From the IMG/VR virus record IMGVR_UViG_3300020037_002952, positions 1 through 64,000 of that record: a stretch of 64,000 nucleotides of DNA. One strand, given 5' to 3'. The position numbers and the translations under genes were made by a program. Positions 3,604-54,380 of the stretch are shown piece by piece. The DNA is from a virus. Lineage: Duplodnaviria; Caudoviricetes. The notes beneath the pieces are model-generated. The model did not search any database. It was given only the letters and a program-made list of their open reading frames with translations, and was not told the origin of the DNA. Positions within the stretch are counted from its first letter, which is position 1; each line of letters starts with the position of its first letter.

Positions 3604-4377
3604 TTGCTGAAGAAGAGAAAAAAATACACCTCCGAAGAGAAGGTTCAACTGTTTACCCAGTACCGTGATGGTGATTCTTCTTGCTACACTGAGCTTCTGG
3701 AAGCATATGTCCCTTTGGTTGAAATTATCGCGACTAAAATAAAATCTAAAGTTGGACCTAGTGTTGAACTTGGCGATTTGATTAGTGATGGATTTTTTGG
3801 TTTAGCTGATGCTATCGAAAAATTTGATGAATCTAAAGGATATAAGTTTGAAACGTATGCATCGACTCGTGTGCGCGGGGCGATTTTTGATTCTTTGCGT
3901 GACTATGACTGGGTGTCAAGATATTCTCGCATCAAGTTTAAAACTTTGGATGCCGCTAAATTAGCTCTTTCCGAAAAGTTACAAAGAGAACCAACAGCAG
4001 ATGATATCGCAATCTTTTTAGATTGGTCTATTAATGAAGTTTCTAAAACTGAGGCAGCTTGGGTCCAGTCATTTCCTTTGGATATCGATGGCAGCAAAAG
4101 TGTATATGGAGACGAATCTTTTGATCTTAAAGAAATTATACCTGATACTACTCTAGGCGAACCTGATTTTGATTTTATATCAGAAACTATTTCTGCCGAA
4201 TTTGAAGTAGCTCTCAGTTCTTTATCAGAACAAGAATCTGTTGTGGTATATCTACACCATTATGAAAGTCTTCCATTTGTTCGAATTGCAGAAGAATTAA
4301 ACATTGGGGCAGCGAGAGTTTCGAGGATTTATTCTGGCGCTCTTGAAACCCTGAAATCTAAGCTCTTAGAGAGCTAA
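3604..4377 (+). CDS. RNA polymerase sigma factor, FliA/WhiG (sigma28) family
   Basis: DLISDGFFGLADAIEKFD..KGYKFETYASTRVRGAIFDSLR.YDWVSR (region 2), REPT (region 3), C-terminal HTH IAEELNIGAARVSRI (region 4). Confidence 0.93.
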   Translation: MLKKRKKYTSEEKVQLFTQYRDGDSSCYTELLEAYVPLVEIIATKIKSKVGPSVELGDLISDGFFGLADAIEKFDESKGYKFETYASTRVRGAIFDSLRDYDWVSRYSRIKFKTLDAAKLALSEKLQREPTADDIAIFLDWSINEVSKTEAAWVQSFPLDIDGSKSVYGDESFDLKEIIPDTTLGEPDFDFISETISAEFEVALSSLSEQESVVVYLHHYESLPFVRIAEELNIGAARVSRIYSGALETLKSKLLES

Positions 4378-7170: not shown

Positions 7171-7216
7171 AGCAAGTCCAGTGTATACCCCAATGTTTGC
7201 ACTGGACTTGCTTTTT
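7171..7216 (+). terminator. Intrinsic terminator overlapping the next promoter
   Basis: AGCAAGTCCAGTG...CACTGGACTTGCT 13-bp stem followed by a T-run. Confidence 0.8.
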
Positions 7217-7236
7217 ATTTGAAAGTGTGATATAAT
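7208..7236 (+). promoter_or_regulatory. Sigma70/SigA-type promoter (leaderless) heading the resolvase/glycosylation operon
   Basis: TTGCTT-N17-TATAAT with TG extension, 6 nt to ATG 7243. Confidence 0.75.
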
Positions 7237-7242
7237 ATAGAT

Positions 7243-7473
7243 ATGATAGAAGAGGCCACGATAACAAGATTAGCGAGCGAATTTTCCACAAGATTAGAAG
7301 CTCTCGATGTCTTCGTTATGGACTATAATCTTTTTGTCTACGAAGTGGATAAGATTTACGCAGATTTCGAAGAGTTACGTAAAGATGTAATTGCTGGTAA
7401 GGTAAATATATTTTTTACTGTAGAATGTTTTCTTGGTGAAAATGTCTGGAACTTCTTAGATGAGGAAGAATGA
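7243..7473 (+). CDS. Hypothetical acidic protein
   Basis: First gene after the promoter; ATGA overlap with the next gene. Confidence 0.65.
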   Translation: MIEEATITRLASEFSTRLEALDVFVMDYNLFVYEVDKIYADFEELRKDVIAGKVNIFFTVECFLGENVWNFLDEEE

Positions 7474-7841
7474 AGCCAGGGACAGCAAAAGCTAAGGGAG
7501 CCCAGACCGAAATAATGTACGTTAAACATCTTGTTGAAAAATACAATTTGTGCAATGTTGAACGTCGGCATCTCGCCGGGGCTTTGGATAAAGGTGATCT
7601 TGCTGGATGGGTTAAGCAGGATGGTTCCAAATCAGTTTGTTGTGAAATAAAAAGCGGAGCATCCCTAAGTATTCCTAAGTGGCTCTCAGAACTTAAAGCT
7701 GAAAAGAAAAATAGTAACGCTGATGTAGGATTCGTTGTTGTACGACCTAAAGGAAAGCCTGCTGTAGAAGATTGGTTTGTTTTAATGCCCCATCCAGAGT
7801 TTATGGAACTAATGCGAGAAGCTGGATATTTACATGACTGA
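7470..7841 (+). CDS. Holliday junction resolvase (PD-(D/E)XK fold)
   Basis: AKAKG...E, VERR, DKGDL, CEIK, W..EL..EK motifs of the phage Hjc-like family. Confidence 0.8.
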   Translation: MKPGTAKAKGAQTEIMYVKHLVEKYNLCNVERRHLAGALDKGDLAGWVKQDGSKSVCCEIKSGASLSIPKWLSELKAEKKNSNADVGFVVVRPKGKPAVEDWFVLMPHPEFMELMREAGYLHD

Positions 7842-8541
7842 TATTATCGTTGGATGCCCCGTAGCTAATCGCAGTTGGATTTTACCTACATGGAAGAAAT
7901 ATGTAGATGCGGCTATCCCGGAGTCTTGGAATTTGCATTATATTTTTGCTGTTCCAATGTGGGACGAAGAAACTTTAGAACTTCTAGGATCTTGGGAAAA
8001 TACCCAGATTATTCCAACAGAAGAACCTCAAAGAAAAGACGTTAGAGATTGGGCTAATACAGATTCCTTTACTCGTATGGCTGATTTGAGAAACCATATT
8101 CTAAAGTTCGTTCGCCAGCATCATCCAGACTTTTATCTTTCTCTTGATTCTGACATCTTGCTCAGACAGCAAGCATTTGACGATATGTATGAAACGCTAA
8201 CTCAACAGAACTGCAATGCGGTAAGTAGCATAACCTATCTTGATCCTACTGACGCATCGGTAACCAACGCAGCGAATTGGCGTAACCCATCTACGTTCCA
8301 GCAATTCAAAAGAATAGCTCCGGGGACGGTTGTGCCTGCTGGAATTCTAATGGCAATTAATATGATGGATAATTTAGCTTACAACGTAAATTATGATTAT
8401 CATTATTATGGAGAAGATTTTGGCTGGAGCAAAAATGCAGCTAACGCTGGCTTGAAAATGTATATAGATGGAAGAACTTCAAGTAAGCACGTAATGTACC
8501 CAGAGTGGTTAGAAATAGAGGACAAAAGAGTTGGCTACTAA
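7834..8541 (+). CDS. Glycosyltransferase (GT-A fold)
   Basis: LRN..L, SLDSD (DxD), GEDFGW, H motifs. Confidence 0.8.
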   Translation: MTDIIVGCPVANRSWILPTWKKYVDAAIPESWNLHYIFAVPMWDEETLELLGSWENTQIIPTEEPQRKDVRDWANTDSFTRMADLRNHILKFVRQHHPDFYLSLDSDILLRQQAFDDMYETLTQQNCNAVSSITYLDPTDASVTNAANWRNPSTFQQFKRIAPGTVVPAGILMAINMMDNLAYNVNYDYHYYGEDFGWSKNAANAGLKMYIDGRTSSKHVMYPEWLEIEDKRVGY

Positions 8542-8731
8542 AAGACCAGTAAAAAAAACTGCACAAGAAATAGAAGTCGGAGATATACTTGACAACCAGT
8601 ATAAAGTTACTTGGATTTCTCAATTGACCTTAAGAGATGGAAGCTGTAGCTTTGATGTAAAAGATATTAGAGACAATGGACTCTGCAAAAAAGTTAAATG
8701 TCCTCCCGGCACAACGTTTGATGTCTCATGA
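8531..8731 (+). CDS. Small hypothetical protein (SH3/KOW-like)
   Basis: Fills the gap between coupled genes; AQEIEVGDIL..YKV. Confidence 0.55.
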   Translation: MATKRPVKKTAQEIEVGDILDNQYKVTWISQLTLRDGSCSFDVKDIRDNGLCKKVKCPPGTTFDVS

Positions 8732-9504
8732 GTAATCAGCTACTTTCAATAGTTATCAACTATAAGACGAATGATTTGCTATCCAATTTTATTGATTCTT
8801 ACATGGAGTACGTTCACGACGAAGGTCGGATTCTTGTTATTGGCGATGTAGATGGTGACTATCCAATTTCACTCGTCCCAGATGGAGTTGGGTTTATTGG
8901 TTGGAATGAAAATATAGGATATGCTCGGGCAGTAAACTATATTGCTAGAGCATATGAATCCTATAATTGTGAGAACATCGGGATCTTTAATGCCGACACA
9001 CGTTTCGTCAATTATGATTGTGTAGACTCATGTGTCAATCTTCTTCAGTCAGAGAAAGATATCGGCGTAGTTGGGCCACTGCAATATAATGGCCAAGGTC
9101 AAATTACTCATGCCGGAATTTTCGGAAGAAATTCTAAGCCGTTACATCGTGCATGGAAATCTAAAGATTTGGGAAGCGTTCGTGATGTTAAAGATGCTGT
9201 TACTGTTTCTGGGAGCGCTTATTTCGTTAAGCGTAGCGTATGGGATGAACTAGCTAATGATCCAGAATTTTTACTGATAGATCCAGAAGCAGAAGGCGCG
9301 TTCTTAACAACAAATCTTTATTACGAGGAAACCTTTTGTAGCTATTTTGCTCGTCATAAAGGGTATCGAGTTGTGTATAATGGATTAGCTGAAATGCTCC
9401 ATGAGCACGACTCAAGTCCTGAGTCAGAACTGGTTGGTAGATTGCCGGAAGCTAGAGAGAAATTTAGGGCCGCATGTGATGCCCTAGGGATTGAGAGAGA
9501 TTAA
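8728..9504 (+). CDS. Glycosyltransferase family 2
   Basis: IVINYKT, ENIGYARAVN, FNAD, VVGP, VSGS, LYYEE. Confidence 0.9.
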   Translation: MSNQLLSIVINYKTNDLLSNFIDSYMEYVHDEGRILVIGDVDGDYPISLVPDGVGFIGWNENIGYARAVNYIARAYESYNCENIGIFNADTRFVNYDCVDSCVNLLQSEKDIGVVGPLQYNGQGQITHAGIFGRNSKPLHRAWKSKDLGSVRDVKDAVTVSGSAYFVKRSVWDELANDPEFLLIDPEAEGAFLTTNLYYEETFCSYFARHKGYRVVYNGLAEMLHEHDSSPESELVGRLPEAREKFRAACDALGIERD

Positions 9505-9505
9505 T

Positions 9506-10210
9506 ATGATAGTCGGACACATGGTTATGCGTAACGAGGCTGATAGGTACCTTCAGGCGTCTCTCACGCAGCTTCTAAAATTTTGTGACGAAGTTGTTGT
9601 TGTTGACGATCAGTCCGATGACGATTCTGTTGAGATCGCTAGAGATCTTGGTTGCAAGGTTATTGTTAGACCTAATGAGATTCTATCTTTTTTACAAGAT
9701 GAAACTTATTTTCGCTCCTACGCTTGGTGGGCAATGACGAAGGAATTAAAACTTTCTAACAAAGATTGGATTATCGCTTTAGATGCGGACGAATATATTT
9801 ATGGAGGGCCTGACTTAATTTCTGAAGTCAAGAATTATGATTCTATTTCTGTTCCCATTAGAGAAGTGTGGGACGTTGATCCGATTCAGTTGAGGGTAGA
9901 TGGTTTTTGGGATACCAATTCTCATAATAGAATAGTCAAATACAATCCTTCCTTTAGGTTTGAGAACAGTGGGTCTGGCACCGGAAGTGTTCCCACTGGT
10001 AAGTATAATACAGAAATTCATGATAAACATAGTCCGCTAATGATTCTCCACTTTGGATATACCACCCCAGAAGATAGACAGACAAAATACGAAAGATATA
10101 CTGGTATGAAAAATCATGGACATAACGAAAAACATATTAGATCTATTATTGGTACTCCGACTTTAATTGAAGCTGGGACTTTAGTTAAATTTTGGCGAGG
10201 TAAACAATGA
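9506..10210 (+). CDS. Glycosyltransferase family 2
   Basis: MRNEADRYL, VVVDDQSDDDSVEIA, WIIALDADE, ILHFGY....RQTKYERY. Confidence 0.9.
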   Translation: MIVGHMVMRNEADRYLQASLTQLLKFCDEVVVVDDQSDDDSVEIARDLGCKVIVRPNEILSFLQDETYFRSYAWWAMTKELKLSNKDWIIALDADEYIYGGPDLISEVKNYDSISVPIREVWDVDPIQLRVDGFWDTNSHNRIVKYNPSFRFENSGSGTGSVPTGKYNTEIHDKHSPLMILHFGYTTPEDRQTKYERYTGMKNHGHNEKHIRSIIGTPTLIEAGTLVKFWRGKQ

Positions 10211-10875
10211 CCGTTTCAGTAATTATCCCATGGTACGATTCCGGTGAACCTTACAGACAGAAGGCTAAAGAGTATGTTATAAACTGGTGGACTTCTAATT
10301 TTCCCGGCTTTGAGGTTTTAGTGGGAGCCAATGTTGGTAAATTCAACCGTTCGGCTTCTAGAAACATGTTAATTAGCCAAGCATATAATGACTTGCTCAT
10401 TATCGCTGACGCTGATTCGGTTCCACAACTTGGAGCTATATATACTGCAATAAGGTACATCGATACTAATGAGGGCTGGGTCATCCCATATGATCTGTAT
10501 CAGAATCTTAGTCAAGAGTACACAGATTCTGTTTACGAACAACAGCTAGAAATTCTTGACCCCAAAGATGAGGACTGTGAACATCAGATCACTTCTTGGG
10601 CGGGAATTCTCATTGCTCCCAAAGATGCTGTAGTCGGTGTTGGCGGATATGACGAAAGATTTGTCGGCTGGGGGCACGAAGATGTTGCTTTCAGAATAAA
10701 ATTAGATGCCGAGTATGAAAAGCATACCAGAGTTGCAGAACAAAAGCTAAGACATTTGTGGCATCCAATTGCCAAAGAAGATCAGTTTAATTCTCCAAAT
10801 GAAATTAGAAATAGAATGCTATTTGACAAAGAGTATAAAATAAGGTATAATTGGAGAGACGAAAGGATCTCATGA
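10207..10875 (+). CDS. Glycosyltransferase with galactosyltransferase (GT7-like) C-terminal motif
   Basis: VSVIIPW, FNRSASRN, ADAD, GGYDERFVGWGHED, HLWH. Confidence 0.88.
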   Translation: MTVSVIIPWYDSGEPYRQKAKEYVINWWTSNFPGFEVLVGANVGKFNRSASRNMLISQAYNDLLIIADADSVPQLGAIYTAIRYIDTNEGWVIPYDLYQNLSQEYTDSVYEQQLEILDPKDEDCEHQITSWAGILIAPKDAVVGVGGYDERFVGWGHEDVAFRIKLDAEYEKHTRVAEQKLRHLWHPIAKEDQFNSPNEIRNRMLFDKEYKIRYNWRDERIS

Positions 10876-11678
10876 ATCTTTATACCTATGATTATTTAGA
10901 AAGAAACGGAAGACTTGGTAATCAGCTTTGGCAGATTGCGTGGCAATATGGTTCTGCTATAAAAAATGATGGCCGTCTTTACATTAAACCTGACTGGGAA
11001 TATCGCAAGTTTTTCTGTGTTCCGGATAGTTTCTTTGAACGCCCTATTACTCATCTTTCCGCTGTAGACGGTCAGACTGAATATTTTCAGGAGTTGCATT
11101 GGTGGAATGGATATGAGGATGGTATTAAATTTATGTTTTCCCCCTCAGACTATGCTCTAGAAGAAGTAAAGAGGACAACTCCAGTTGTGTCCCCAGCAGA
11201 TTCTTGCAGTATACATTATCGAAGAGGTGATTACGTTAAGCTCCCCCAACACTATCCAATCCCTAGTGAGAATTACTATAAAAATGCTATGGTTGAAATT
11301 TTAAAAGAAAATGCTGATACAACATTTTTTGTATTCTCAGATGACATCGATTACATCGAGCAGGTATATCATAAAGATTCTGGATTGTATAAAGAACTAC
11401 TTGATCACAATAAAGTTCATTTTGTTAAAGGCACTCCACGACCAGTCGAAGTAATTGATAGAATTGGAGAGCCGCAGGATTGGCTTGATTTGTTTTATAT
11501 GAGTTCCTGTAATTATCATATTATTGCTAACTCAACCTTTTCTTGGTGGGGAGCCTTTTTGGGTGAATCTAAAACAACTTACTATCCGTCAGTATGGTTT
11601 GGAAACCATGAAAGCGTTAGATATATCCCCTGGAGACAAGGTATTCCAGATTATTGGAAAGAAGGAAATGCATTATGA
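10872..11678 (+). CDS. Alpha-1,2-fucosyltransferase-like (GT11)
   Basis: GRLGNQL.Q, SIHYRRGDY, FVFSDD, DL..MSSC...IIANSTFSWWGAFL. Confidence 0.93.
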   Translation: MNLYTYDYLERNGRLGNQLWQIAWQYGSAIKNDGRLYIKPDWEYRKFFCVPDSFFERPITHLSAVDGQTEYFQELHWWNGYEDGIKFMFSPSDYALEEVKRTTPVVSPADSCSIHYRRGDYVKLPQHYPIPSENYYKNAMVEILKENADTTFFVFSDDIDYIEQVYHKDSGLYKELLDHNKVHFVKGTPRPVEVIDRIGEPQDWLDLFYMSSCNYHIIANSTFSWWGAFLGESKTTYYPSVWFGNHESVRYIPWRQGIPDYWKEGNAL

Positions 11679-12307
11679 TGATGGACTTTCAGGACTTAGT
11701 TCGGAAGTATAAGGTTGATGTCAAAGGGGTGCTCCATGTGGGAGCGCATTTGGCGGAAGAAGCTGAGGTATATGAATCAGTGAATTCTGGGACCGTATGG
11801 TGGGTCGAAGCTAACCCATCCGTATTGCCCAAGATTGAACAAAAAATTTCTAGATTTAGGGACCAGTGGTTAATTCACGCCCTAGTTTATTCAGAGGATG
11901 GCGCTGAATTAGAATTTAATGTTACGAACTATGACGGTATGTCTTCTTCTATTTATGAGTTTGGAACACATACCTCTTTCAGCCCAGACGTACTATTCAC
12001 GGATAAAATCAAATTAACTACCAAGACTCTTGATACTATTTGTAAGGCTAATAACATTACGGCTAATTTTCTAAATATGGATCTCCAAGGAGCGGAAGGC
12101 CCCGCTCTTCGGGGTGCTGAGAGTCTCATTAATCGTCTTGACTATATTATGACAGAAGTAAATAAAGATGAAGTGTATGTAGGCTGTACTCGAATTGAAG
12201 AGATCGACAAAATTCTAGAAGACTTCCAGAGAGTAGAAACGCTATGGGTATCAACTCAGGGATGGGGCGATGCCTTCTATATTAGAAAGACGGTTTTAAA
12301 TGGCTAA
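11675..12307 (+). CDS. FkbM-family methyltransferase
   Basis: VLHVGAH, VEANP, SSSI, FLNMDLQGAE, EVN..EVY.G, WGDAFY. Confidence 0.9.
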   Translation: MMMDFQDLVRKYKVDVKGVLHVGAHLAEEAEVYESVNSGTVWWVEANPSVLPKIEQKISRFRDQWLIHALVYSEDGAELEFNVTNYDGMSSSIYEFGTHTSFSPDVLFTDKIKLTTKTLDTICKANNITANFLNMDLQGAEGPALRGAESLINRLDYIMTEVNKDEVYVGCTRIEEIDKILEDFQRVETLWVSTQGWGDAFYIRKTVLNG

Positions 12308-13040
12308 AATTACTGTCCTTATTCCATCTTATAACTGCGAGGATTGGATCAAGAGATGTCTAGATTCCGTAAAGTCTCAAACGGTCCAGCCATCTAAGGT
12401 AGTCGTAATCGACGATGCCTCAACAGATCCTAGTTATGCCGAAAAAACTCTTAAGCTATGTAAGCAGTATGGTTATACATTTCTTAGAAATGATAAGAAT
12501 GAAAAATGTCCATACAATCTTTGGCTGGGCGTTAAGATTCTAAATCCAGATGAAAATGATATTATTTTCTTGCTTGATGGTGACGATTTCTTACCGCATC
12601 CTAACGTTTTTCAGAGGATTAAAGAAGTGTACCAAGATGAAAACTGTTGGATGACTTATGGGAACTATGAACCTTTCCCGCACAATACTGGGCAAACATT
12701 AGCTGCCGCTTACCCTGAGGAAGTGATTCAAACCCGCTCTTTCCGTACTTCCGGGAATGTTTTTAACCATCCGATTACTTTCAGAAGATTCTTATTTGAT
12801 CAAATCAAAGAAGATGAGCTTAAGTCAGATAACGGGAATTGGTTCCGTGGCGGTTATGATTTTGCGATTATGGTGCCAATGCTCGAAATGTGTGGCGGTG
12901 AACATTATCAATTTATTAACGAAACATTATATTCTTATAACGCCATTAATCCTATTTCTGATTCACAAATCAACGTTCCTTTAATTATGGAAACAGATCA
13001 GCTTATTACTCGACCAAAGAAGGACCTTCTTATCCGATGA
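12300..13040 (+). CDS. Glycosyltransferase family 2
   Basis: VLIPSYN, CLDSV, VIDDASTD, LDGDD. Confidence 0.9.
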   Translation: MAKITVLIPSYNCEDWIKRCLDSVKSQTVQPSKVVVIDDASTDPSYAEKTLKLCKQYGYTFLRNDKNEKCPYNLWLGVKILNPDENDIIFLLDGDDFLPHPNVFQRIKEVYQDENCWMTYGNYEPFPHNTGQTLAAAYPEEVIQTRSFRTSGNVFNHPITFRRFLFDQIKEDELKSDNGNWFRGGYDFAIMVPMLEMCGGEHYQFINETLYSYNAINPISDSQINVPLIMETDQLITRPKKDLLIR

Positions 13041-13753
13041 ACACTTTTCACGACTACGTAAAGAAAACGCATCAGAACTTTAATGCCTATTCACAAAATA
13101 GAGAAGATCGAATTATTAAAAGTATCTTTGATCTGATTGGTGACGGTAACAAAAGATGCATAGAATTTGGTGCTGCTGATGGTTTCTTTTGCAGTAATAC
13201 AGCATATCTTTGGCATGGTCTTTTTTGGCAGGCACACCTAGCTGAATCAAGCCCGGAACTTTACCAACAGTTAGTTGCGAATACTTCAAGTTATAAAAAT
13301 GTGACTACCACTTACGATACCGTCACATCCGTTGACGATTTAGCTGATGGTGAAATCCAAGATTTTGTATCCATTGATGTTGATGGAACAGATTATACGA
13401 TTTGGGAAAACACCACTCTCAAACATCGAGTTGTTTGTATTGAACATAACCCAACATATCCGCCTCATGTATTTTATCATGGCGGAGAATGGCAGGGAGC
13501 TTCAGCGGCATCCATAAATAGATTAGCAGAGACTAAAGGATATACTCTAGTTGCTTGCACTCGAACCAATTTAATATTTGTAGTTAATGAAGAAAATCAA
13601 TTTCTTGATAATTACGATACAAGTCTTGAGGCTAACTTTGATACAACTGACATAAGTTATGTAGTTACAGATTATCATGGTAATTTTGATATTGTTGGTA
13701 ACCCCCCATATAATATGGTAAATAAAACTAAGATTGGATTTTATTGTGAATAA
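13037..13753 (+). CDS. FkbM-like methyltransferase
   Basis: YSQNREDRII, IEFGAADG, SIDVDGTDY, VVCIEHN, GAS, KGY.LV. Confidence 0.85.
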   Translation: MNTFHDYVKKTHQNFNAYSQNREDRIIKSIFDLIGDGNKRCIEFGAADGFFCSNTAYLWHGLFWQAHLAESSPELYQQLVANTSSYKNVTTTYDTVTSVDDLADGEIQDFVSIDVDGTDYTIWENTTLKHRVVCIEHNPTYPPHVFYHGGEWQGASAASINRLAETKGYTLVACTRTNLIFVVNEENQFLDNYDTSLEANFDTTDISYVVTDYHGNFDIVGNPPYNMVNKTKIGFYCE

Positions 13754-14360
13754 CCCTTATAAAGTAAGTTTTGATGAATGGGAATCAGCCGGCGCTATTG
13801 TGCCTGGCCGTTCTGTACCGGAGGAAGTGAAATGGTTTGTTTTATTGAATGAAGCAGAAAAAAACAATCACGATACTCTTATTGAAACTGGCACAGCTAC
13901 TGGAGATACACTTCTCCATGTCTACAGCTTTTTTAACAAGATTTATTCTTTTGAATTGATGCAAACTTATTATGAAGTTGCCAAACGTAATACTCAAAAT
14001 ATAAGTCACATCACACTATTTAATGAGTCTTCTGCTGGAGAACAATTTGCTTCGCTCATTAATTCTCTCACAGGTCCCGCTCTCTTTTATCTTGATGCTC
14101 ACTTTTCTGGCGAGGGCACTGGACAAGATAATTCATTAGAAACTCCAGACGTTCCAGTCCGAGAAGAATTAACCATCATCCTTGAAAGTCCATATAAGCA
14201 TACTATCGTCATTGATGATGCAAGAGTATTCCAGGGGGAAGAGTTTCATTCAGAAGAGTATGCTCAGTACCCTTCTATGGAAGAAATAGCAAGATTTGTT
14301 AAATCAAAGTATACCGTTAGACATGAAGCCGACAGTTTTATTTTAACGCATAATGACTAA
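13734..14360 (+). CDS. Class I SAM-dependent methyltransferase-like protein
   Basis: LIETGT..GDT, YSFEL, FYLDAHFSG, IVIDDAR. Confidence 0.75.
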   Translation: MDFIVNNPYKVSFDEWESAGAIVPGRSVPEEVKWFVLLNEAEKNNHDTLIETGTATGDTLLHVYSFFNKIYSFELMQTYYEVAKRNTQNISHITLFNESSAGEQFASLINSLTGPALFYLDAHFSGEGTGQDNSLETPDVPVREELTIILESPYKHTIVIDDARVFQGEEFHSEEYAQYPSMEEIARFVKSKYTVRHEADSFILTHND

Positions 14361-14970
14361 AGTTGGAGTAGTTATCGGAACTTTCGGTTCAGAAGAATGG
14401 CGTCTCAAAGGATTGGAAACAAATGATTCTTTAGATGATCAGATTGTTGACAGAAAGTTTTTTAGGGTTCCAGTTCATAGTGAGCGTCTTTGTGATGCTA
14501 GAAATTTTGGCGCAGAGATCTTATGTGAAACAGCCGAAGTCGATCTTCTTATCTTTCTTGATGCCGATGATCGTTTAGATAATGGTTATGTTCAAGCTAT
14601 GATAGACGCCTACGAAAACTTGCCTTTCGGAGAGTATCTTATCCAGCCAGCTACAGCACTTATGAAAGATGGGATTCAATGCGAAGCTGAAGCAGTTATC
14701 CCACGCCGTGGAAAAATAACTGACGGGAATTGGATGGTCATTGGTACGGCAGTTACAGTTGATGCTTTTAACTATGTGGGCGGGTTTAAAGACTGGCCGA
14801 TCTATGAAGACTGGGATCTATGGCTAAGATGTCATAAGGATTACGATGCTCAGTTTGCTATTCAGCCTGAAGCGATATACTTAGTTGGGGATAATCCAGA
14901 TAGTAGAAATAAACAGCCAACAAAAATCCATAATGAAACATATCGAAAAATTCGAGCACCATATTTGTAA
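14353..14970 (+). CDS. Glycosyltransferase family 2
   Basis: ARNFG, IFLDADD, VGGF....YEDWDLWLR. Confidence 0.88.
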   Translation: MTKVGVVIGTFGSEEWRLKGLETNDSLDDQIVDRKFFRVPVHSERLCDARNFGAEILCETAEVDLLIFLDADDRLDNGYVQAMIDAYENLPFGEYLIQPATALMKDGIQCEAEAVIPRRGKITDGNWMVIGTAVTVDAFNYVGGFKDWPIYEDWDLWLRCHKDYDAQFAIQPEAIYLVGDNPDSRNKQPTKIHNETYRKIRAPYL

Positions 14971-14995
14971 CGGTTTTGGAATAAACAGCCGATAA
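14968..14995 (+). promoter_or_regulatory. Sigma28/WhiG-type promoter of the packaging operon
   Basis: TAAC-N16-GCCGATAA; the -10 is the exact FliA/WhiG consensus. Confidence 0.7.
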
Positions 14996-15029
14996 ATTTA
15001 GTTACAACCCTCTCACAAGAAAGATTTTA

Positions 15030-15719
15030 ATGCCAAAACCTAAAGGTTCTACCCCCAAACCTGGGGATTTTGATAGTTTCGACGATAGTTCTTCTGACGA
15101 TATTTTTAGCGCAGTTAAGAATCTTCCCACAGTTATTTCTCCTTCCGGAGCCGAAGTTCAAGTAATGAACAGTAAGGAAGTTGAGTTTTATAATAGTGTC
15201 TCAGAGAGATATCAACAAGATAACAAGTTCACTAATATTTCCGATCTAGCTGAACTTGATCGTCTTTTAACATACGAGATGATGTGTTTCCGCTGGGCCA
15301 ACTGGCTTCTTACTGGCTACGACTATGATGGTGGCCCAGTTATGAGTAGTCTTTCAAAAGATATTGCTGCTTATTCTAAAGAAATTCGTGACATTAAAGG
15401 TGGTCTTGGGATCGATAAAAAGACTCGCGATCGAGATAAAGGAGCTTCCACCGCAGAGTTTATGGATATGTTAGTTATCCGTGCGGGTGAATTTGGCGTT
15501 CACCGTGACGAACAGATCATAGCTGCTCACACAATCCTCAAAGAACTAGAAGCTTTATATACTCTTCATAAGAATTCTACTGCCACCGAACGGACAGAGT
15601 TTAAGTGTCATGAGGAAGATATCTTTAATTGGATGGAAGAGAAGTTTAGGGAGTTTGATAAAATTGACGATGCTTTCCGTGAAAATCAAAAGATCTGGTT
15701 GAGGGAGCTTAATTCATGA
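15030..15719 (+). CDS. Putative terminase small subunit
   Basis: Position upstream of TerL; helical, with LGID..TR oligomerisation-like motif. Confidence 0.55.
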   Translation: MPKPKGSTPKPGDFDSFDDSSSDDIFSAVKNLPTVISPSGAEVQVMNSKEVEFYNSVSERYQQDNKFTNISDLAELDRLLTYEMMCFRWANWLLTGYDYDGGPVMSSLSKDIAAYSKEIRDIKGGLGIDKKTRDRDKGASTAEFMDMLVIRAGEFGVHRDEQIIAAHTILKELEALYTLHKNSTATERTEFKCHEEDIFNWMEEKFREFDKIDDAFRENQKIWLRELNS

Positions 15720-16219
15720 GAAGCGATAAGTGGGATAAGAAACTTAACGTTCTAAGATCTAAGTATCCACAAATAACAAATATCAACTGGGGCGAAATCC
15801 TAAGAGATGAACCAGAAGTTTTTTGTGGAGTTGTTGGAAAAGTAACTGTTCCAGACAATACTAAGAAATCTGAAATTCAAACATTTCAAGGGAACGTACA
15901 GTTCGCTAGAGTATCCAACTCAGATTACTCTGAGCTAGAATTTAAAAAAGCTTTCACTATTATTTACAGCAGATATCATGACCCACTTATAGAGAAAACT
16001 AATCTCTCCGAGCGTCACTTGATCGCTCTTATGGAGGGGAGTATAACTCCTACATACGAAGACATGGAAGAGATAGCTCAAGCTATTGGCAGGAATCCAT
16101 CCTTCTTTATGGAGTATAGAATCGCTAAAATTTTAGCGTCTATTGATTCGTATCTTATGGTTAGTCCAGAAACTACTTCTGTTTGGTATAACAAAGTTTC
16201 AAAAAATGAGTCTTTATGA
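15716..16219 (+). CDS. XRE-like HTH protein
   Basis: KTNLSERHLIALMEGSITPTYEDMEEIAQAIG. Confidence 0.6.
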   Translation: MRSDKWDKKLNVLRSKYPQITNINWGEILRDEPEVFCGVVGKVTVPDNTKKSEIQTFQGNVQFARVSNSDYSELEFKKAFTIIYSRYHDPLIEKTNLSERHLIALMEGSITPTYEDMEEIAQAIGRNPSFFMEYRIAKILASIDSYLMVSPETTSVWYNKVSKNESL

Positions 16220-19200
16220 TTTATGAACAGTTAACAGATAATGAGTGTTACCTTTATGCTTTAACTCAAGATGAGTCTGGATTAGATCTGGCAGAGTTTT
16301 GTTATATTGACGAAACTTCTGAAGACGGCTGTTTCCGTGCTTGGCCGATCCAGTACGCTTGGTGGCGCAAAAAAGACCAAAAGCAAATTTCCGCTGGGTC
16401 TAGATCTGTAGGTAAGGCTCTCGCAGTAGATACCCCTATCTTTACTTTAGATGGCTGGAAGCTGATGGGTGATATTGAAGAAGGAGACTTTGTTCTTCAC
16501 CCCTCAGGTGCCCCTAATTGCGTTATAGAAACTCATGAAATTTATGACGATCGACCATGTTACCAGATTGATTTTAGTAATGGTGGTCGTATTACTGCTG
16601 ACTCGAATCACTTATGGGTTGTATGGGATGATTTAAATAACCCCCTCATGGTGACAACACACGCCTTATACAAAAACTATTCCACATATAAAATCCCAGA
16701 ACAACAAACAGCTTGGGCTGGACACATCGCTCCTAAGGCTGTTGAAAGCTGGATCACTATAGATTCAGTTATTAAAGTTGAGCCTCAGCCAACAAGGTGT
16801 ATTACAGTCGAGTCGGATGACGGGATGTTCCTCGCTGGCCAAGCTCTTATCCCTACACACAATAGTTTGAGTATTAAGTTCAGGGCTTTCGCCTTCCCAT
16901 TTTTGAATCCTGGCGAAGAAATGATTGTAACCGCTCCAGAGAATATCCACCTTGAAGCTGTTACAGACAATATCGAAACCCTTTATGTTAATAATAAGCT
17001 AGCAAGTGAGATGATCGTTGGTGGTCGAGGCGGCATCACGCACAGGCCATTCAGAATGAACTTTAGTAATGGTGCCCGTATTATGGGCCGCATCCCGCAA
17101 CTGGATGGATCAGGGATTAAAGGCTGTTTTGAAAAAGGAACCCTAGTGCTGACCCGTAGAGGCTGTATCCCGATTGAGGCCGTAGAGGTCGGGGACATCG
17201 TTTTTACCCATCTTGGTAATTGGAAAAAGGTTACACATACTTGGATTTTCCAAGAAGAAACTCCGGTTCGTGTGCAGGCAAATAGACTCTCCGAAGGGGT
17301 AGTGTGTAGCGGGATAGAACCATTTTGGGCTAGATATGGCAATACTTTGAATATGAAGCAAAATGAACCTGAATGGTGTTTTGCTAAAGATCTTGCAGTT
17401 CAAAAAAACCGCCGTCATCGCTGGAATTTACTCTCTCCAGCCGAGTTCCCCGAAGAAACTCAACCAGCATTTCCGTTTAAATATGACGAAAAGGAGGTAG
17501 AAACACTTTATTGGCTTTTTGGTCTATATCAAGCCGAGGGTTCTTCTTCTATTAAATCTGGGCAGGTTACATTTTCGGTACACGAAGAAGAAGTAGATTG
17601 CGTCAAATCTGCAATCAATCGCATTGGTTATAATGCCGGAGCAACGCGTAAAAAGGGTCTAGGTATGGACGTCTACTTTTCGTCACAGCCCTTTATAACA
17701 TTTCTCAGAGAGGAGTTCAAAGCCTGTAAAGAAAAAACTATTCCCGTATGGATGTATGGTGCCCCAAGAGAACTTAAGGAAGCTTTCTTCTCTGGCGCTC
17801 TCTATGGCGATGGATGCTGGCGACATGAAAGCCTAAACGAGTATATCACAGTGATACGCTCTCTAGCTTACGAAATGAAAATGTTCGCTCAATCCCTAGG
17901 GTATGTAGCCTCAGTACACAGAAATAATACTTCTACTAATTTTGGAGATAATGGTTGGTATAGAGTTTTGGTGAGCGACCAGCCAGAATCTAGTAATTTC
18001 ATCGATGGGCACATTATGAGTGGCGTTCAAAATGTCGAAGAGTTAGCCCCAATGACTGTCTATGACCTCACTGTTGAAGATGATCATAGCTTTACGGCCA
18101 ACAGTGTGTTTGCTAGAAATACTCACCCCATCTGGCTTGAGCAGGATGAGGCTTGTTTCCCAGGAGAGACTCTTGTTTTTACTCATAAAGGACATATAAG
18201 AATCGATGAGATTGAAATTGGGGATTATGTATTAACCCATAAAAACCGATGGAAAAAAGTCCTAAATGTTTGGGATCGTGGTGAGAGAGAAACTATTAAT
18301 GTTAAGGGATTTATAGTCCCGACGCCCACTAGACTCATCAGTAAAACTATTAGGGTCACACCTAATCACAGGTTCTACGCCAAAAAATCTCAATATAGTC
18401 CGACCGAATGGATTCGTGCTGATGAACTTAAGGGATGCCTATGGTCGTATTTTGTTGATGGCAGACTAGTTTTTGGTGCCGTTGGAAAAGAATATGAATT
18501 GGACCCAGAAATTTGTAGAGTTTACGATATCGAAGTTGAAGATGACCATTCATTCGTTGCTGAAGGAATTGTTGTTCATAACAGCGACTACCCAGAAAAG
18601 GGTTGGGACGAAATTGTCGAAACCGTAAAGGTTCAAAATCCTAAAGCTCGTTGGCGAGCCCATGGAGTAACAAGAGGCGTTGGAGATAAATTTGACGAGA
18701 AGATCTCTGGGTCAGAATCAGAGTGGGCAGTTATCCGTCTGCCAGCTATGTATAGACCAAACTGGACTGATAACGAACGTAAATCGAAGATCGAAGAGTA
18801 TCACGGTTATGATTCTCCTAACTACAGAAGAAACATTTTAGGTCTTCCTGGTGACAATAACTCGCCTATGTTTGTTTTGCATAGGATTATGGCTAATGTT
18901 GTTCTTGATCTTGAAGATAATTATAATGCTTTCGAATACTATAATACTTTTATTGATGAAGCGATGATTCGTGAAGTTGACGATATTTTAGAACTTATCG
19001 ATATACCAGCTTCTCATTCAAGTTACAGTAGATTTTGGATCGGAATGGACTTTGGCTGGACGCAAGCACCATCGGCTATTGCTGTTTTCGCTGAGATAAG
19101 AAATCCAAAGAAAGATGAAACTTCACTTAAACTGTTAACTAAAATTATTCTTAAAAGAGTAGCCCCTATTGATCAGTTTAAAGTTATCATGCACCTTATG

Positions 19201-24911: not shown

Positions 24912-25841
24912 ATGTTTAAAGAAACAAACGCTGAACTAAAGGCCCTCCAAGATCAGATCGACCAGCTTAATGCTGAAGCGGCTGATAAGGTTCGGGATCA
25001 GGCATGGCGCACGGAACGCTCACATGAAATCGCCGAAGAAATCTTCGAAGGTTTCATGAGTGAAAACCTCGTAGACCAGCTTACAACCACAGAGTATCTT
25101 CCACGTAACGGTCGGTCCACAATCCGCGAAACCCGCGGCCTAAAGGCTTTCCACGTTGCCCGTGGTGGTTACATCGAAGAGAGCTTCTTGCACTCAGAGG
25201 TCACAGAGATTGAACGAGATCAGATTGGTTTCCACGTTGTGGAGCACCTTGACCGTCTCGAAACCAATTTCGCAGTGACAGCTTCAGATCTTATTGATCT
25301 TGGCAAGAAACGTCTTGACGCAGAAATCAACCGGCGTGTGCTCGCAACCTTCCAGGCTGCGGTTCCGTCAAGCTCACCTTACTATACAGCAGCTTCCGGC
25401 GTTACTCTTACACAGATTAACACAGCCATTGCAGCAGTGCAGGATGAGACAGCGGTTGGCGAACTTCCGGTCATTATCGGTCGAGCACCGATGATCCGTA
25501 AGATCGAAGATGCGCTTACAGCGAACAACACCTACTCACTTTTTCTCCCGGAAACAAATGAGTCGCTTCTACGCTCAGGAGTCCTTGGCTCCTACCGTGG
25601 CTGCACCCTTGTTCAGTTGAAGAACTATCTTGATGAGGATGGCGATTCTTATTTCCCCGGAAATGAGCTTTGGTTCCTTGGTAAAGATGCTGGAAAGACA
25701 GCCTTCTTCGGTACTCCTCGTATCCATGATATGGTTGACTTCGAAGATTACTGGCACTATAGCTATCGTGCCGATTATGGTACGATCGTGACGCGGCCAG
25801 AACGGACTCGTAGAATCGTGGATTCAACAGTTTCCGCTTAA
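24912..25841 (+). CDS. Major capsid protein (HK97 fold)
   Basis: 309 aa, strong RBS, VARGGYI and GVLGSYRG..LV motifs, followed by a strong terminator. Confidence 0.85.
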   Translation: MFKETNAELKALQDQIDQLNAEAADKVRDQAWRTERSHEIAEEIFEGFMSENLVDQLTTTEYLPRNGRSTIRETRGLKAFHVARGGYIEESFLHSEVTEIERDQIGFHVVEHLDRLETNFAVTASDLIDLGKKRLDAEINRRVLATFQAAVPSSSPYYTAASGVTLTQINTAIAAVQDETAVGELPVIIGRAPMIRKIEDALTANNTYSLFLPETNESLLRSGVLGSYRGCTLVQLKNYLDEDGDSYFPGNELWFLGKDAGKTAFFGTPRIHDMVDFEDYWHYSYRADYGTIVTRPERTRRIVDSTVSA

Positions 25842-25906: not shown

Positions 25907-25935
25907 TTGCTTTTTAAAAGAAAGTGTGATATACT
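25907..25935 (+). promoter_or_regulatory. Sigma70/SigA-type promoter (leaderless)
   Basis: TTGCTT-N17-TATACT with TG, 6 nt to ATG 25942; close copy of the promoter at 7208. Confidence 0.75.
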
Positions 25936-25941
25936 GGCATT

Positions 25942-27861
25942 ATGACTACAGCACAACTCTTTAAAGCTTTCGGCGAAGAAAAAACTATCATGGACTGGGC
26001 CAAAGATCCACGATGTGAGGTTTCGGCTGGTACACTTAGAATTCGTATTAAAAAAGGTATGACGCTAGAGGAAGCCATTTCTCAACCCAAGCTTCCACTA
26101 TGGGAGGCTTTTGGTGAATGTAAAACTTGGACCGAGTGGTGGAGCGATCCACGTAGAATTGTTGAAAACGAAAGAACTGTTCGCTCACGTCTAGATGCTG
26201 GCTGGTCATTTGAAGATGCTATTACTAAAAAGGTTGGCCAGGAACGACAATTATATCAAGCTTTTAATGAGTCTAAAACAGTCACCGAGTGGGCTGATGA
26301 TGAAAGATGTGTTGTTGGGTTTTCTACCTTATGGAGTCGGCTTCAAAAAGGATGGGAATTTTCAAGAGCATTAACAGAAAAATCCGAGGGAGTAACGGAA
26401 TACACTTTTGACAGCGAAACCAAAAGTCTAAGCAAATGGTCTATAGACGACAGATGTGTTGTTGCTTGGAATGTTTTACGGCGTAGAGTTGAGGATGAAA
26501 AATGGGATTTAAAAAAAGCTTTAACAACTCCCGTTCTTATTGAATTTGAAGCCTTTGGCGAAACTAAGTGCTTGGAACATTGGATTAAAGATGAAAGATG
26601 TTTAGTTTCGTGGCAAACAGTCCGCTATCGGGTGAATAATTTAGGTCTTCAGCCTGGCGACAATATTGAAACTGTTCTTACCGATCCAATAAAAGATTTG
26701 ACAATAACTACTCACGATGCTTTTGGTGAATCGAAAACTCTGACTGAGTGGTCGCTAGATGAAAGATGCGTTCACAATAATCGTGACTTATTAAGTTCGA
26801 GGCTTTACATTGGTTGGGATATCGAAAAAGCAATACAAGAAGATTATGTTACTAGGGACGCTAAAACATATAAAGCCTTTAATAAGGACTTGTCTCTCTA
26901 TCGTTGGGTTAATGAACCAGAATGTGTTGTTCAGCACCCCGTAACGATATACAGCCGAATTCAAGGCAATATGCCAGTAGAAGAAGCTTTAACTAGAGAG
27001 GTTGGCATGTCAAGCTCATATCCAGAACAAATGCTTGCCAACTATATTGAGTCTCTTGGATTTGATATTGTTCGTAATGACCGCACGGTAATCCCGCCGA
27101 AAGAGCTAGACATTTTCATTCCAGAAAAAAATGTTGCAATTGAGTTTAACGGACTGTACTGGCATTCAGAAAAATTCAATCATAAAAACTATCATTACAA
27201 CAAATATATCTCCTGTGAAGCTAAGAATGTCCGGCTTATCCAAATTTGGGAAGATGACTGGAATTTTAAACAAGATATTGTTTGCAAAATGCTCGCCCAA
27301 AAACTTGGAGTATTAAGCCAGCAATCTGTTTATGCTAGAAAATGTAAAATAGATTCTAGCGTTGGAGTTAATGAAGCGAAACAATTTCTCAATGAAAACC
27401 ATATACAAGGCTGGACTACTTCTTCATACTACTACGGGTTAAGATTTGAGGGTCTGCTCGTTGCATTGGTATGCATGAAGAAAGTTGATGATAAAAACGC
27501 TGTTTGGGATCTGGTCAGGTTCGCCACATCAGCAAATGTTCCGGGCGGGTTCTCCAAACTTCTCAAAGCTTTCAGAAAAGACCACGATGGAGCTATTAAA
27601 ACTTTCGCTGATCTCACTTTATCAGATGGTGGACTATATTATCAAACAGGATTTGTTATGGATAAGTTTATCTCACCAGACTATTTCTACGTAGAAACTG
27701 GGAATCCAATACGATCGCACAAGTTTAGCTACAGAAAAAAAAGATTTAAAAATGATCCTGAACTTTTCTATGACGAGAGCATGACTGAAGGCGAGCTTGC
27801 CGCTGCTAATGGTTTGTTGAAAATTTATGATGCCGGTAAGTTACGGTTTGTTTTAAAGTAG
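25942..27861 (+). CDS. Free-standing Hef-like endonuclease: 7 tandem ~50-aa repeats + PD-(D/E)XK (Vsr-like) nuclease + GNAT/Mom-like domain
   Basis: Repeats AFGExKTxxEWxxDxRC..TLxxR..GW..EEA; nuclease ELDIFIPEKNVAIEFNGLYWHS; C-terminal YARKC..FLNENHIQG..LVRFA..GGFSKLL..LYYQTGF. Confidence 0.8.
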   Translation: MTTAQLFKAFGEEKTIMDWAKDPRCEVSAGTLRIRIKKGMTLEEAISQPKLPLWEAFGECKTWTEWWSDPRRIVENERTVRSRLDAGWSFEDAITKKVGQERQLYQAFNESKTVTEWADDERCVVGFSTLWSRLQKGWEFSRALTEKSEGVTEYTFDSETKSLSKWSIDDRCVVAWNVLRRRVEDEKWDLKKALTTPVLIEFEAFGETKCLEHWIKDERCLVSWQTVRYRVNNLGLQPGDNIETVLTDPIKDLTITTHDAFGESKTLTEWSLDERCVHNNRDLLSSRLYIGWDIEKAIQEDYVTRDAKTYKAFNKDLSLYRWVNEPECVVQHPVTIYSRIQGNMPVEEALTREVGMSSSYPEQMLANYIESLGFDIVRNDRTVIPPKELDIFIPEKNVAIEFNGLYWHSEKFNHKNYHYNKYISCEAKNVRLIQIWEDDWNFKQDIVCKMLAQKLGVLSQQSVYARKCKIDSSVGVNEAKQFLNENHIQGWTTSSYYYGLRFEGLLVALVCMKKVDDKNAVWDLVRFATSANVPGGFSKLLKAFRKDHDGAIKTFADLTLSDGGLYYQTGFVMDKFISPDYFYVETGNPIRSHKFSYRKKRFKNDPELFYDESMTEGELAAANGLLKIYDAGKLRFVLK

Positions 27862-30726: not shown

Positions 30727-31824
30727 ATGGTTAATTTTGATGATATCACAACTCTTATCATAACCGCTGAGAGCCCTTCTACCGTCATTAAGGTAGTAGA
30801 GCAGGGACCCCCCGGGCCACCCGGTGAACAAGGCCCTGAGGGCCCTGAGGGGCCCCCTGGTGATGGTTCTGGTGCTAGCGCCTCATTAACGGCGTCTGTT
30901 GTTTTATACTGCCCTGATAGAACTGCTTCTGATATTACTCCCATTGAAAACGAAACAATGTGGTGGGTATTCTATCGTGAGGGCCATGTTGGGGCCGGAG
31001 ATGGCCAGGCCGAACTCGACGACTGGTATTCTCTAACAAGTTTTGATTGGACCGAAGGCTGGTCAACAGATAACGATCCAACAAATGTTCTTCTCATGTT
31101 TCCTGGCGAAGAATGGCCAACTGTGCTCGCAGAAGTAGTCCCAACAGGATTTACAGCCATTGATGTTCTTGGCGGACAGCAAATCACGATTGGTTGTGGC
31201 GGAGCAGGTTTTGGTTGGCACTCTATTTGGGTTGCCTCAAATGATGCTGTGTCTGGTGGTATTGGAGCGCTTGATCCAACGGCTCCTGCAACATCGTTCC
31301 AACCGCAAGGTATCGATGCTGGAATGGTCGAAGTTGGTGGTGACGATTCAGGTTGGATAAGTCTTCGTCAATGGATGATCGACAATCCTATCGGGGCACC
31401 TACTATTTACTACGATTCATCAATAGCAGTACAACCGTGGGTGCAGACCGACGCTGACTTCGGGGTTTCGTCCACAGTAACTGCTCACGGACACGTTACT
31501 CGCACGAATCCGTATTGGGCTGAGGTCACTCTTACGTTCCATTCCGTGGTTGATGTGACTACTCCTGGTACTGGTGCCCCGCAGTTTCTTGTTAGAAAAC
31601 TACTCGGGTCATTCGACGCAGACTTTTCCAACTGGTATTGGGGCTGGAGCACTCCTAGCGATTTGCGCTGCTCTGTCTGGGGTCAAATCGCTGGGCTTCC
31701 GTTCACCGGATTCGTGAGCCGACAGGGCTATATTCTCGACGCCAACGGTGACACGATTACCCGTGTTCTCGTATCCGGCGATTACCTTAGAGGCACCGTG
31801 ACAGGAGTTTTCCAAAATGACTAA
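30727..31824 (+). CDS. Collagen-repeat fibre protein
   Basis: QGPPGPPGEQGPEGPEGPPG followed by beta-rich domains. Confidence 0.7.
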   Translation: MVNFDDITTLIITAESPSTVIKVVEQGPPGPPGEQGPEGPEGPPGDGSGASASLTASVVLYCPDRTASDITPIENETMWWVFYREGHVGAGDGQAELDDWYSLTSFDWTEGWSTDNDPTNVLLMFPGEEWPTVLAEVVPTGFTAIDVLGGQQITIGCGGAGFGWHSIWVASNDAVSGGIGALDPTAPATSFQPQGIDAGMVEVGGDDSGWISLRQWMIDNPIGAPTIYYDSSIAVQPWVQTDADFGVSSTVTAHGHVTRTNPYWAEVTLTFHSVVDVTTPGTGAPQFLVRKLLGSFDADFSNWYWGWSTPSDLRCSVWGQIAGLPFTGFVSRQGYILDANGDTITRVLVSGDYLRGTVTGVFQND

Positions 31825-54374: not shown

Positions 54375-54380
54375 ATTTTC

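Follow-up and report, generated by a model that had tools for sequence, protein, structure and literature searches.

What does a tailed phage build with ten consecutive carbohydrate enzymes, and onto which acceptor? The question is raised by a glycan island of ten co-directional genes (g1–g10) in the first 64 kb of IMGVR_UViG_3300020037_002952, a 113,329-bp IMG/VR virus contig estimated by CheckV to be ~56% complete. This 64,000-nt stretch is referred to as the window; searches of the whole record cover the 113 kb, that is ~56% of the genome. The island is a real, intact and selectively maintained glycan-building locus. We read it as a cytoplasmic, membrane-independent glycan-assembly locus whose acceptor is most likely the virion proteins of the phage, a reading for which several indirect points argue and to which we assign a probability of about 0.5.

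The ten enzymes of the island

The island encodes seven glycosyltransferases (GTs; six GT-A/GT2-type and one GT11) and three methyltransferases (two FkbM-type and one cation-dependent-type class I O-methyltransferase). An earlier note on this DNA had counted seven and three at 7834–14970, and family or fold matches to ten plus-strand open reading frames (ORFs) returned exactly that number (Table 1). Its description of overlapping or abutting genes is also accurate: the junctions are 4- or 8-nt overlaps or abutments, with one exception, a 187-nt gap between g1 and g2. With the most probable start codons, most junctions become ATGA or 8-nt overlaps, which suggests translational coupling. An orphan 66-aa ORF in the gap had no homolog in any relative locus fetched, and since g1 and g2 abut or overlap in every relative, it is probably not a real component.

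The leading enzyme, g1, was modeled by AlphaFold2 as a GT-A fold with a pLDDT of 96.8. Its best VIA match is the N-terminal GT-A domain of COLGALT1 (residues 51–319; Z 20.9 over 225 residues), followed by Mnn9, the accessory domain of LH3, B4GALNT1, mimivirus R699, RmlT and TarP; g1 is closer to GT25-N-terminal/Anp1 (GT62) than to canonical GT2. Residues D105, D107 and H219 are invariant among 56 homologs. For g2, 525 homologs were found, most of them carrying PF00535 and some named 'GT2 family glycosyltransferase'. The DADE motif of g3 is invariant in its ortholog alignment, orthologs of g4 retain ADAD and WGxED, those of g7 keep DGDD, and LDADD and EDW are invariant among 15 orthologs of g10. 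Searches against PHROG linked g4 to phrog_1721 ('galactosyl transferase', 1.3e-24) and gave only weak GtrB-like matches for g7 (1e-5), which, with 63–70% identity in the closest relatives, is the best-conserved gene of the accessory cassette described below. The GT11 enzyme g5 scores 61.8 bits with PF01531 (cut-off 23.9), and its motifs HxRRGD(Y), FSDD and NSTFSWW are conserved in at least 90% of 10 orthologs.

Among the methyltransferases, g6 scores 48.7 bits with PF05050 and 56.5 bits with TIGR01444, both over cut-off. Membership of g8 in the FkbM family follows from transitive homology: it has no direct family match, and two of its 28 homologs, at 44% identity, carry PF05050. The g8 family conserves EFGAxDG (the S-adenosylmethionine motif) and SIDVDG, and its profile gave no significant match in the PDB. 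For g9, Pfam returned nothing for any member of the family. An AlphaFold model built from a 13-member alignment (pLDDT 85.7) found cation-dependent O-methyltransferases as its best Foldseek matches (TrmR, CCoAOMT-like and COMT; E 4e-8, TM-score ~0.6), and the g9 profile matched TrmR in the PDB at 7.5e-5. ETGT, D121, D161 and D162 are invariant, and by analogy the three aspartates could serve as metal ligands. Single-sequence PDB searches with g2, g8 and g9 gave no match. Homologs of the g9 type also occur at 30–36% identity on giant-virus (GVMAG) contigs (L015, L020, L028, L031 and L034) and on many unrelated phage contigs, at times beside GT11 and FkbM genes (L006, L013).

Ortholog alignments indicate that the catalytic signatures are intact in all ten enzymes; the loss of catalytic residues from the GTs, which the earlier note had named as grounds for abandoning its proposal, was not observed. 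The ten genes are not recent duplicates, the closest pair being g3/g7 at E 0.007. No transmembrane helix was predicted in any of the ten proteins (maximum 19-residue Kyte-Doolittle value 1.32). Neither a polyprenyl-phosphate priming transferase (PF02397) nor a flippase was found in the 113 kb, and no member of the Epimerase, NTP_transferase, Bac_transf or GT1 families was detected there either. Family assignment and transmembrane prediction, both suggested earlier as checks, accordingly place every enzyme in a class and agree with the view that membrane anchors, a flippase and nucleotide-sugar genes are missing from the window.

A base set and an exchangeable cassette in a fixed slot

Relatives were collected by IMG/VR scans with the g9 and g1 families, followed by tblastn of window proteins. 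The order ribonucleotide reductase (RNR) ... RusA, g1 ..., g11, g12, large terminase (TerL), h101, portal was found in ~27 related contigs. The island slot, from RusA to TerL/portal, is also present in the sole GenBank relative, Caudovirales GX15bay (MK557849), a metagenome-assembled phage from mangrove soil with 40% identity in the portal and 45% in the major capsid protein (MCP). Moraphages (PMC12619734) were considered as the lineage and set aside, as nothing connects them to this clade. The ~27 contigs include L131 (RXKC01000010.1, from a Candidatus Saccharibacteria metagenome-assembled genome, MAG) and L132 (CAZUVD010000006.1, from an uncultured Coxiellaceae MAG), both with full phage synteny; these are phage contigs binned into MAGs and are no evidence of host.

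Comparison of these loci disclosed two tiers: a base set of four GT-A enzymes (g1, g2, g3 and g10) and an accessory cassette, g4–g9. Minimal islands consist of g1-g2, g1-g2-g3, g1-g2-g10 or g1-g2-g3-g10, and extended islands add g4-g5-g6-g7-(g8)-g9 and one further gene, encoding a GDP-mannose 3,5-epimerase. The insertion point of the cassette varies: it splits g3 from g10 in the window, follows g10 in L056, L059 and L066, and separates g2 from g10 in L002, L004 and L005. L131, the nearest relative by g11 and g12, carries only the base genes g1-g2-g3-g10. The cassette is patchily distributed on the g11+g12 tree, and the sister pairs L058/L059 (branches ~0.01) and L065/L066 differ in it. Between L058 and L059, the flanks share 89–94% nucleotide identity and the g3–g11 intervals, 4.8 kb and 5.5 kb, are unrelated sequence; the L058 cassette encodes five GT2-like proteins and a different SDR epimerase/dehydratase, and that of L065 a TOD1/MUCI70-like GT and a Methyltransf_23 enzyme. 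GX15bay carries yet another mix (annotated rhamnosyltransferase, methyltransferase, galactosyltransferase and GT2), which was published under the heading of carbohydrate 'auxiliary metabolic genes' (PMC6460857). A base and flanks that stay conserved while glycan cassettes are exchanged follow the pattern of a serotype locus. The comparison across relatives that the earlier note had suggested thus shows a fixed slot, and a single ten-enzyme pathway gives way to a base plus a swappable cassette. Because the slot is filled by different cassettes in close relatives, we expect a strain-specific surface glycan under diversifying selection.

A nucleotide search of GenBank phages with the island gave only 60–70-nt GT11 matches, g5 having a short match to the GT11 genes of P-SSM2/P-SSM5, and tblastn with g2 found MK557849 only. 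A locus search with g11 alone gave no match.

The extra gene of the extended islands bears on the sugar donor. In contig L003 (10618–11589) its product matched the solved GDP-mannose 3,5-epimerases 8sg0 and 2c59 at E 3.3e-90 and 1.8e-87, the next class being GDP-fucose synthase at 9e-29. The gene comes after g9 and accompanies the g4–g9 cassette in at least 9 of 10 related contigs; the tenth, L082, ends soon after the island. In the window, g9 overlaps g10 by 8 nt, and the 113 kb contain no PF01370 match and no tblastn trace or remnant of the epimerase. Either the gene lies in the remaining part of the genome or the phage relies on host GDP-L-fucose/GDP-L-galactose. The earlier proposal that the glycan is made from host nucleotide sugars therefore fails for the lineage, in which at least 9 of the 10 related contigs with the cassette encode an epimerase of their own.

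The constant linkage of GT11, FkbM and epimerase genes in the relatives suggests an ancestral cassette that transfers L-galactose, or L-gulose, derived from GDP-mannose and then methylates it. With an epimerase in the lineage cassette, the GT11 enzyme may transfer L-galactose instead of, or besides, L-fucose; in the window, the sugar transferred by g5 may be L-fucose. NoeI, a member of the FkbM family, 2-O-methylates fucose in Nod factors.

Virion, envelope or other acceptor

What follows is our inference as to which acceptor is used, in what order the enzymes act, which sugars they add and what the glycan is for. g1 would place the first sugar on the acceptor, and the likeliest acceptor is at least one virion protein of the phage itself, modified in the cytoplasm while the particle is assembled or earlier. 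The remaining GT-A enzymes would lengthen the chain sugar by sugar from host nucleotide sugars, g5 would add alpha-1,2-linked L-fucose or L-galactose, and g6, g8 and g9 would O-methylate sugars of the chain. A virion target is favored by the homology of g4, by the near-purely viral distribution of g1, by the position of g1 at the head genes of a second phage group, and by searches of the 113 kb that found no lipid-carrier, export or DNA-base-preparing genes.

The homology of g4 leads to mycobacteriophages, which account for 127 of its 148 tblastn matches in GenBank phages. It shares 29% identity with Corndog gp37 and Yoshi gp115 (E 1e-11 to 1e-16). In Corndog, the O-methyltransferase gp35 and the GTs gp36–38 lie between portal-side genes and the major head protein gp41. 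According to PMC11600133 and PMC12363180, both citing Freeman et al. 2023, enzymes of the Corndog/Che8 type modify capsid and tail-tube proteins, and Che8 gp110 and Corndog gp38 are essential for that glycosylation.

The g1 family comprises 454 cluster representatives at 50% identity (E <= 1e-3), and the Atlas neighbor clusters of g1 are 84–100% Viruses. Across 185,579 bacterial and archaeal species genomes, g1 gave only five matches; every one lies on a MAG contig, and phage synteny was seen around the two closest. tblastn against 50,697 phage records gave no match. A second, unrelated phage group, of at least 50 contigs, carries g1 at 28–31% identity as the only GT found there. Its gene order is portal (phrog_9232, 2.6e-54), a 102-aa protein, g1, a 635-aa protein, a 255-aa protein and the major head protein (phrog_3922, 4.8e-27). 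In 17/17 long loci g1 comes after the portal and 102-aa genes. Of these loci, 14 contain the major-head-protein family, and the remaining three break off before it. Neither the h101 protein nor the MCP showed a relation between the two g1-sharing groups. We tentatively propose, as a possibility short of an expectation, that g1 founds an undescribed, virus-specific family of protein-priming GTs, which in two unrelated groups of environmental phages would attach the first sugar to proteins of the head or of other virion parts. Interchangeable cassettes would extend this glycan, here and in the relatives as an O-methylated L-galactose/L-fucose cap from phage-made GDP-L-galactose, and would thereby act as 'serotype loci' of the particle. 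The fucosylated, O-methylated virion glycan of the earlier note thus gains indirect support from the g4 homology and from a viral g1 between portal and head genes; its sugar may be fucose or L-galactose.

Several observations weigh against a virion acceptor. The Z score of g1 declines smoothly from 20.9 to ~16 through ordinary GT-A enzymes, so its fold is uninformative on the acceptor, and we rejected the protein-glycosyltransferase flavor of its top structural matches as acceptor evidence. Moreover, the domains matched best, those of COLGALT1 (N-terminal) and LH3 (accessory), are reportedly non-catalytic. GX15bay lacks g1, and the window lacks the epimerase usual for its cassette. Only one of the ten enzymes, g4, is detectably related to the mycobacteriophage cassette; hhalign comparisons of the g10, g1 and g9 profiles with Corndog gp38, gp36 and gp35 stayed below 1% probability, with single-sequence templates limiting sensitivity. 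No enrichment of sequon-like tripeptides was found in the virion proteins (DTG, 2 against 4.5 expected). Enzymes of the GT2, GT11 and GT25 types without transmembrane segments are typical of lipopolysaccharide (LPS), lipooligosaccharide (LOS) and O-antigen assembly at the inner membrane face, so that the absence of membrane parts does not exclude a host-glycan target. Finally, the island stands behind a sigma70-type promoter together with RusA, and not behind the motif of the virion genes; its timing may not be late.

This last point follows from the expression signals. The earlier remark that a SigA-type promoter, rather than the late motif, drives the operon is borne out at the sequence level: an extended -10, TGTGATATAAT, heads the RusA-island operon, and a different motif, GCCGATAAAT, follows the island. 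The TGTGATATAAT-type motif also precedes the homing-endonuclease gene at 25942 with equal spacing. The pattern CGWTATAT has nine matches on the plus strand (4402, 27863, 28427, 29967, 36677, 41383, 48431, 72121 and 96901) and none on the minus strand of the 113 kb, mostly in intergenic gaps preceding RNR and virion genes, and GCCGATAAAT at 14988–14998, between the island and g11, is a variant of it. CGWTATAT probably marks a promoter class that belongs to the phage itself and may be recognized by the phage sigma factor (Table 1). No terminator was found between the island and g11. In the other scans, the sigma28 pattern TAAA-N14-16-CCGATA had 0 matches, and a generic sigma70 scan found 41 sites against 43 expected from shuffles, that is, no enrichment. 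A perfect TTGACA-17-TATAAT (10823–10851) within the 3'-terminal part of g4, 21 nt upstream of the g5 start codon, was not counted as a promoter because it coincides with a conserved g4 peptide (LFDKEY..RYNW) and is not kept in relatives.

Remodeling of the host surface glycan is a serious rival, possible although we doubt it. The soluble enzymes would act at the inner membrane face on host lipid-linked intermediates (undecaprenyl-pyrophosphate (Und-PP)-O-unit, lipid A-core, or teichoic acid/capsule precursors) and change the glycan of the infected cell; superinfection by competing phages would then be blocked, or progeny kept from sticking to debris. Bacterial O-antigen and LOS loci usually contain GT2, GT11, GT25-like and FkbM enzymes, and cassette swapping suits any exposed glycan. 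A sigma70-type promoter shared with non-virion genes would permit early expression. In the literature, hypervariable clusters rich in GTs have likewise been assigned an envelope target in pelagimyophages and cyanomyophages (PMC7029224; PMC12801897). It fits poorly, however, with the searches and the gene neighborhoods: no priming transferase, flippase, polymerase, ligase or transmembrane segment was found, and the near absence of g1 from the bacterial and archaeal species genomes would be odd for an enzyme acting on a host lipid-linked acceptor. The location of g1 inside the head-gene module of the second phage group, and of the island beside packaging and head genes across a deep clade, likewise speaks against it.

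A further rival, which we consider improbable, is another cytoplasmic product: a free or small-molecule-linked methylated oligosaccharide, or a glycosylated non-virion protein of phage or host. Possible roles are nucleotide-sugar sequestration, a decoy, or the modification of a host defense or receptor protein from inside. The enzymes are soluble and sequence does not fix their acceptor, the promoter lies outside the virion-gene class, and methyltransferases of the g9 type occur on many unrelated viral contigs, including giant-virus MAGs. Such a product is nevertheless without known precedent in phages and would not explain why these genes are tied to head and packaging genes in two phage groups, and seven ordered GTs with rapid cassette exchange point to an exposed, recognized structure.

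Modification of DNA, the further alternative of the earlier note, is highly improbable. The GTs and methyltransferases would decorate a modified phage base against restriction, near packaging, in keeping with an island that adjoins the terminase genes and shares an operon with the DNA enzyme RusA. Phages that glycosylate their DNA with several sugars have been described (Pyle et al. 2024, cited in PMC12619734). In the 113 kb, however, no thymidylate-synthase-type hydroxymethylase (PF00303), which would prepare the base, and no ParB-like partner (PF02195) were found, nor was there a match to the alternative base-preparing enzyme, a Tet/JBP dioxygenase (PF12851), in a search that had no positive control. 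Seven GTs with a GT11 and three sugar-type O-methyltransferases are far above any known DNA glycan, and FkbM- and COMT-type enzymes are not DNA methyltransferases.

The genomic setting of the island is given in Table 1. The record has a GC content of ~40% and carries nearly all genes on the plus strand. Among sequencing runs, four DNA data sets were listed as containing it, each with a small share, and no RNA data set was listed. Small genes lie between RNR and RusA, whose gene starts at 7470, and g11 and g12 may be packaging accessory proteins or a small terminase.

Table 1. Features of the glycan island and its surroundings (window coordinates)
Feature	Position	Strand	Basis or remark
Sigma factor gene	3604–4377		phrog_351
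Class II RNR	start 4442		
Intrinsic terminator hairpin and U-run	7171–7220	+	15-bp stem, dG -26.6 kcal/mol, z -8.2; closes upstream unit
Sigma70-type extended -10 TGTGATATAAT	7226–7236	+	6 nt before ATG of the 76-aa ORF heading the RusA-island operon
76-aa ORF (h76) and RusA-like Holliday junction resolvase	7243..7841	+	RusA: phrog_244 2.8e-19; synteny; same operon as island
Glycan island, ten co-directional genes g1–g10	7834–14970	+	
g1, GT-A glycosyltransferase, GT25-N-terminal/Anp1-like	7834–8541	+	Always the first island gene; base set
Orphan 66-aa ORF	8531–8731	+	Inside the 187-nt g1/g2 gap
g2, GT2 glycosyltransferase	8728–9504	+	Base set; via PF00535-carrying homologs
g3, GT2 glycosyltransferase	9491–10210 (likely ATG 9506)	+	PF00535 2.6e-9; base set
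g4, GT2/Glyco_transf_7C	10207–10875	+	Glyco_transf_7C 1.9e-6, Glyco_tranf_2_2; first gene of accessory cassette
g5, GT11 alpha-1,2-fucosyltransferase-type	10851–11678 (likely ATG 10872, overlapping g4 stop)	+	GT11 8e-17; phrog_2644 3.9e-33
g6, FkbM methyltransferase	11654–12307 (likely ATG 11675)	+	FkbM 1.2e-12; TIGR01444 4.2e-15
g7, GT2 glycosyltransferase	12300–13040	+	PF00535 5.9e-17
g8, FkbM-like methyltransferase	13037–13753	+	Via PF05050-carrying homologs
g9, class I SAM-dependent O-methyltransferase fold, COMT/CCoAOMT/TrmR type	13734–14360 (likely GTG 13746)	+	Last gene of cassette
g10, GT2 glycosyltransferase	14353–14970	+	Base set; Atlas model on GT2 clusters, TM-score 0.82–0.84; NCBIfam 1.8e-5
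Intergenic gap with GCCGATAAAT, then g11 (229 aa) and g12 (167 aa)	14971..16219	+	Kept between island and TerL
TerL with intein	start 16216		
Portal	start 20044		Head and tail genes follow, with the MCP at 24912–25841

Further observations concern the surrounding genes. Extended -10 elements (TGTGATATAAT, TGTGATATACT and TATGATATACT; 7226–7245, 25925–25944 and 54364–54383) each end 6 nt before an ATG, and strong terminator hairpins precede the first two. Such a 6-nt spacing is what leaderless mRNAs would show, and since some phyla often use leaderless starts, it may hint at the host. Among ten virion proteins scanned against PHROG, none was recognized as the tail tube or as a decoration protein. 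A 420-aa protein of the virion region (36793–38055) without a PHROG match consists of 21% Ser+Thr, contains a Thr-rich patch, TNTTTTFTLPTSLATGTTYN, and may be a major protein of the tail or the surface. A 365-aa protein (30727–31824) opens with a short collagen-like run, GPPGPPGEQGPEGPEGPPG, and has weak tail-fiber PHROG matches. In MK557849 (L044), the CDS labeled 'PhoH' (14971–17793) is the homolog of the portal described here, aligned by tblastn in two pieces ~1 kb apart, which may reflect an insertion such as an intein; the downstream CDS labeled 'portal protein' is some other protein.

Implications and comparison with known systems

To our knowledge, virion glycosylation by phage-encoded enzymes has been shown so far only in a few actinobacteriophages. 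If the particle is coated here, glycan coats would be common among environmental phages. The loci encoding them would resemble serotype loci, with cassettes exchanged between near-identical genomes, and the pathway would probably begin with the large virus-only g1 family. The locus is relevant to the escape of phages from recognition by host defenses, grazers and therapy antibodies, and to the labeling of such genes as 'auxiliary carbohydrate metabolism' or 'LPS', as was done for MK557849. Together, the epimerase, GT11 and methyltransferases form a compact enzyme set for making O-methylated glycans of rare L-sugars. Should the target instead be the host envelope, the locus would be an equally compact superinfection-exclusion system.

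The island belongs to a known class, the phage-encoded soluble glycosylation cassettes. The closest functional system is that of mycobacteriophages (Corndog gp35–gp38, Che8 gp108–110 and cluster F, for example Yoshi gp114–116). Like the Corndog-type cassettes, the island combines tandem soluble GTs and an O-methyltransferase beside head/packaging genes and has no export machinery, and g4 is a true homolog of gp37 and gp115. The mycobacteriophage cassettes hold three or four enzymes, whereas the island has ten, nine of them without detectable relation; it adds a GT11, FkbM enzymes, an epimerase (in relatives) and the base-plus-swappable build. Its clade, at ~40% GC, is unrelated to mycobacteriophages.

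The nearest functional analogy to the proposed product is chlorovirus PBCV-1 (A064R, A111/114R), whose cytoplasmic GTs, including a fucosyltransferase and a sugar O-methyltransferase, equip the major capsid protein with an unusual methylated glycan that contains fucose, independently of host organelles (PMC7826918). PBCV-1 differs in being a eukaryotic giant virus with fused multidomain enzymes and N-linked glycans. The islands of T4-like cyanomyophages and pelagimyophages (P-SSM2, S-SCSM2R), which are lytic phages, are also hypervariable and contain large sets of soluble GTs including GT11, and their authors read them as host O-chain modification (PMC12801897, PMC7029224). Those clusters lie among tail-fiber genes, usually with several nucleotide-sugar enzymes; in contrast, the present island has no tail-fiber genes, occupies a RusA-to-terminase slot and is led by a virus-specific g1.

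With bacterial O-antigen and capsule loci the island shares conserved flanks, interchangeable GT2/GT11/methyltransferase cassettes and dedicated nucleotide-sugar enzymes; unlike them, it is virus-encoded and has no Wzx/Wzy/ABC export, priming transferase or ligase. The membrane parts of Gtr-type and other lipid-carrier systems (GtrA, GtrC, Wzx/Wzy) are not matched by the island, which has no transmembrane segment and no PF02397. Specific to this locus, within the class to which it belongs, are its clade, the slot between RusA and terminase, g1 as leader here and as a lone GT elsewhere, the cassette of GT11, two FkbM enzymes, O-methyltransferase and epimerase, and the clean loss of that epimerase in the window.

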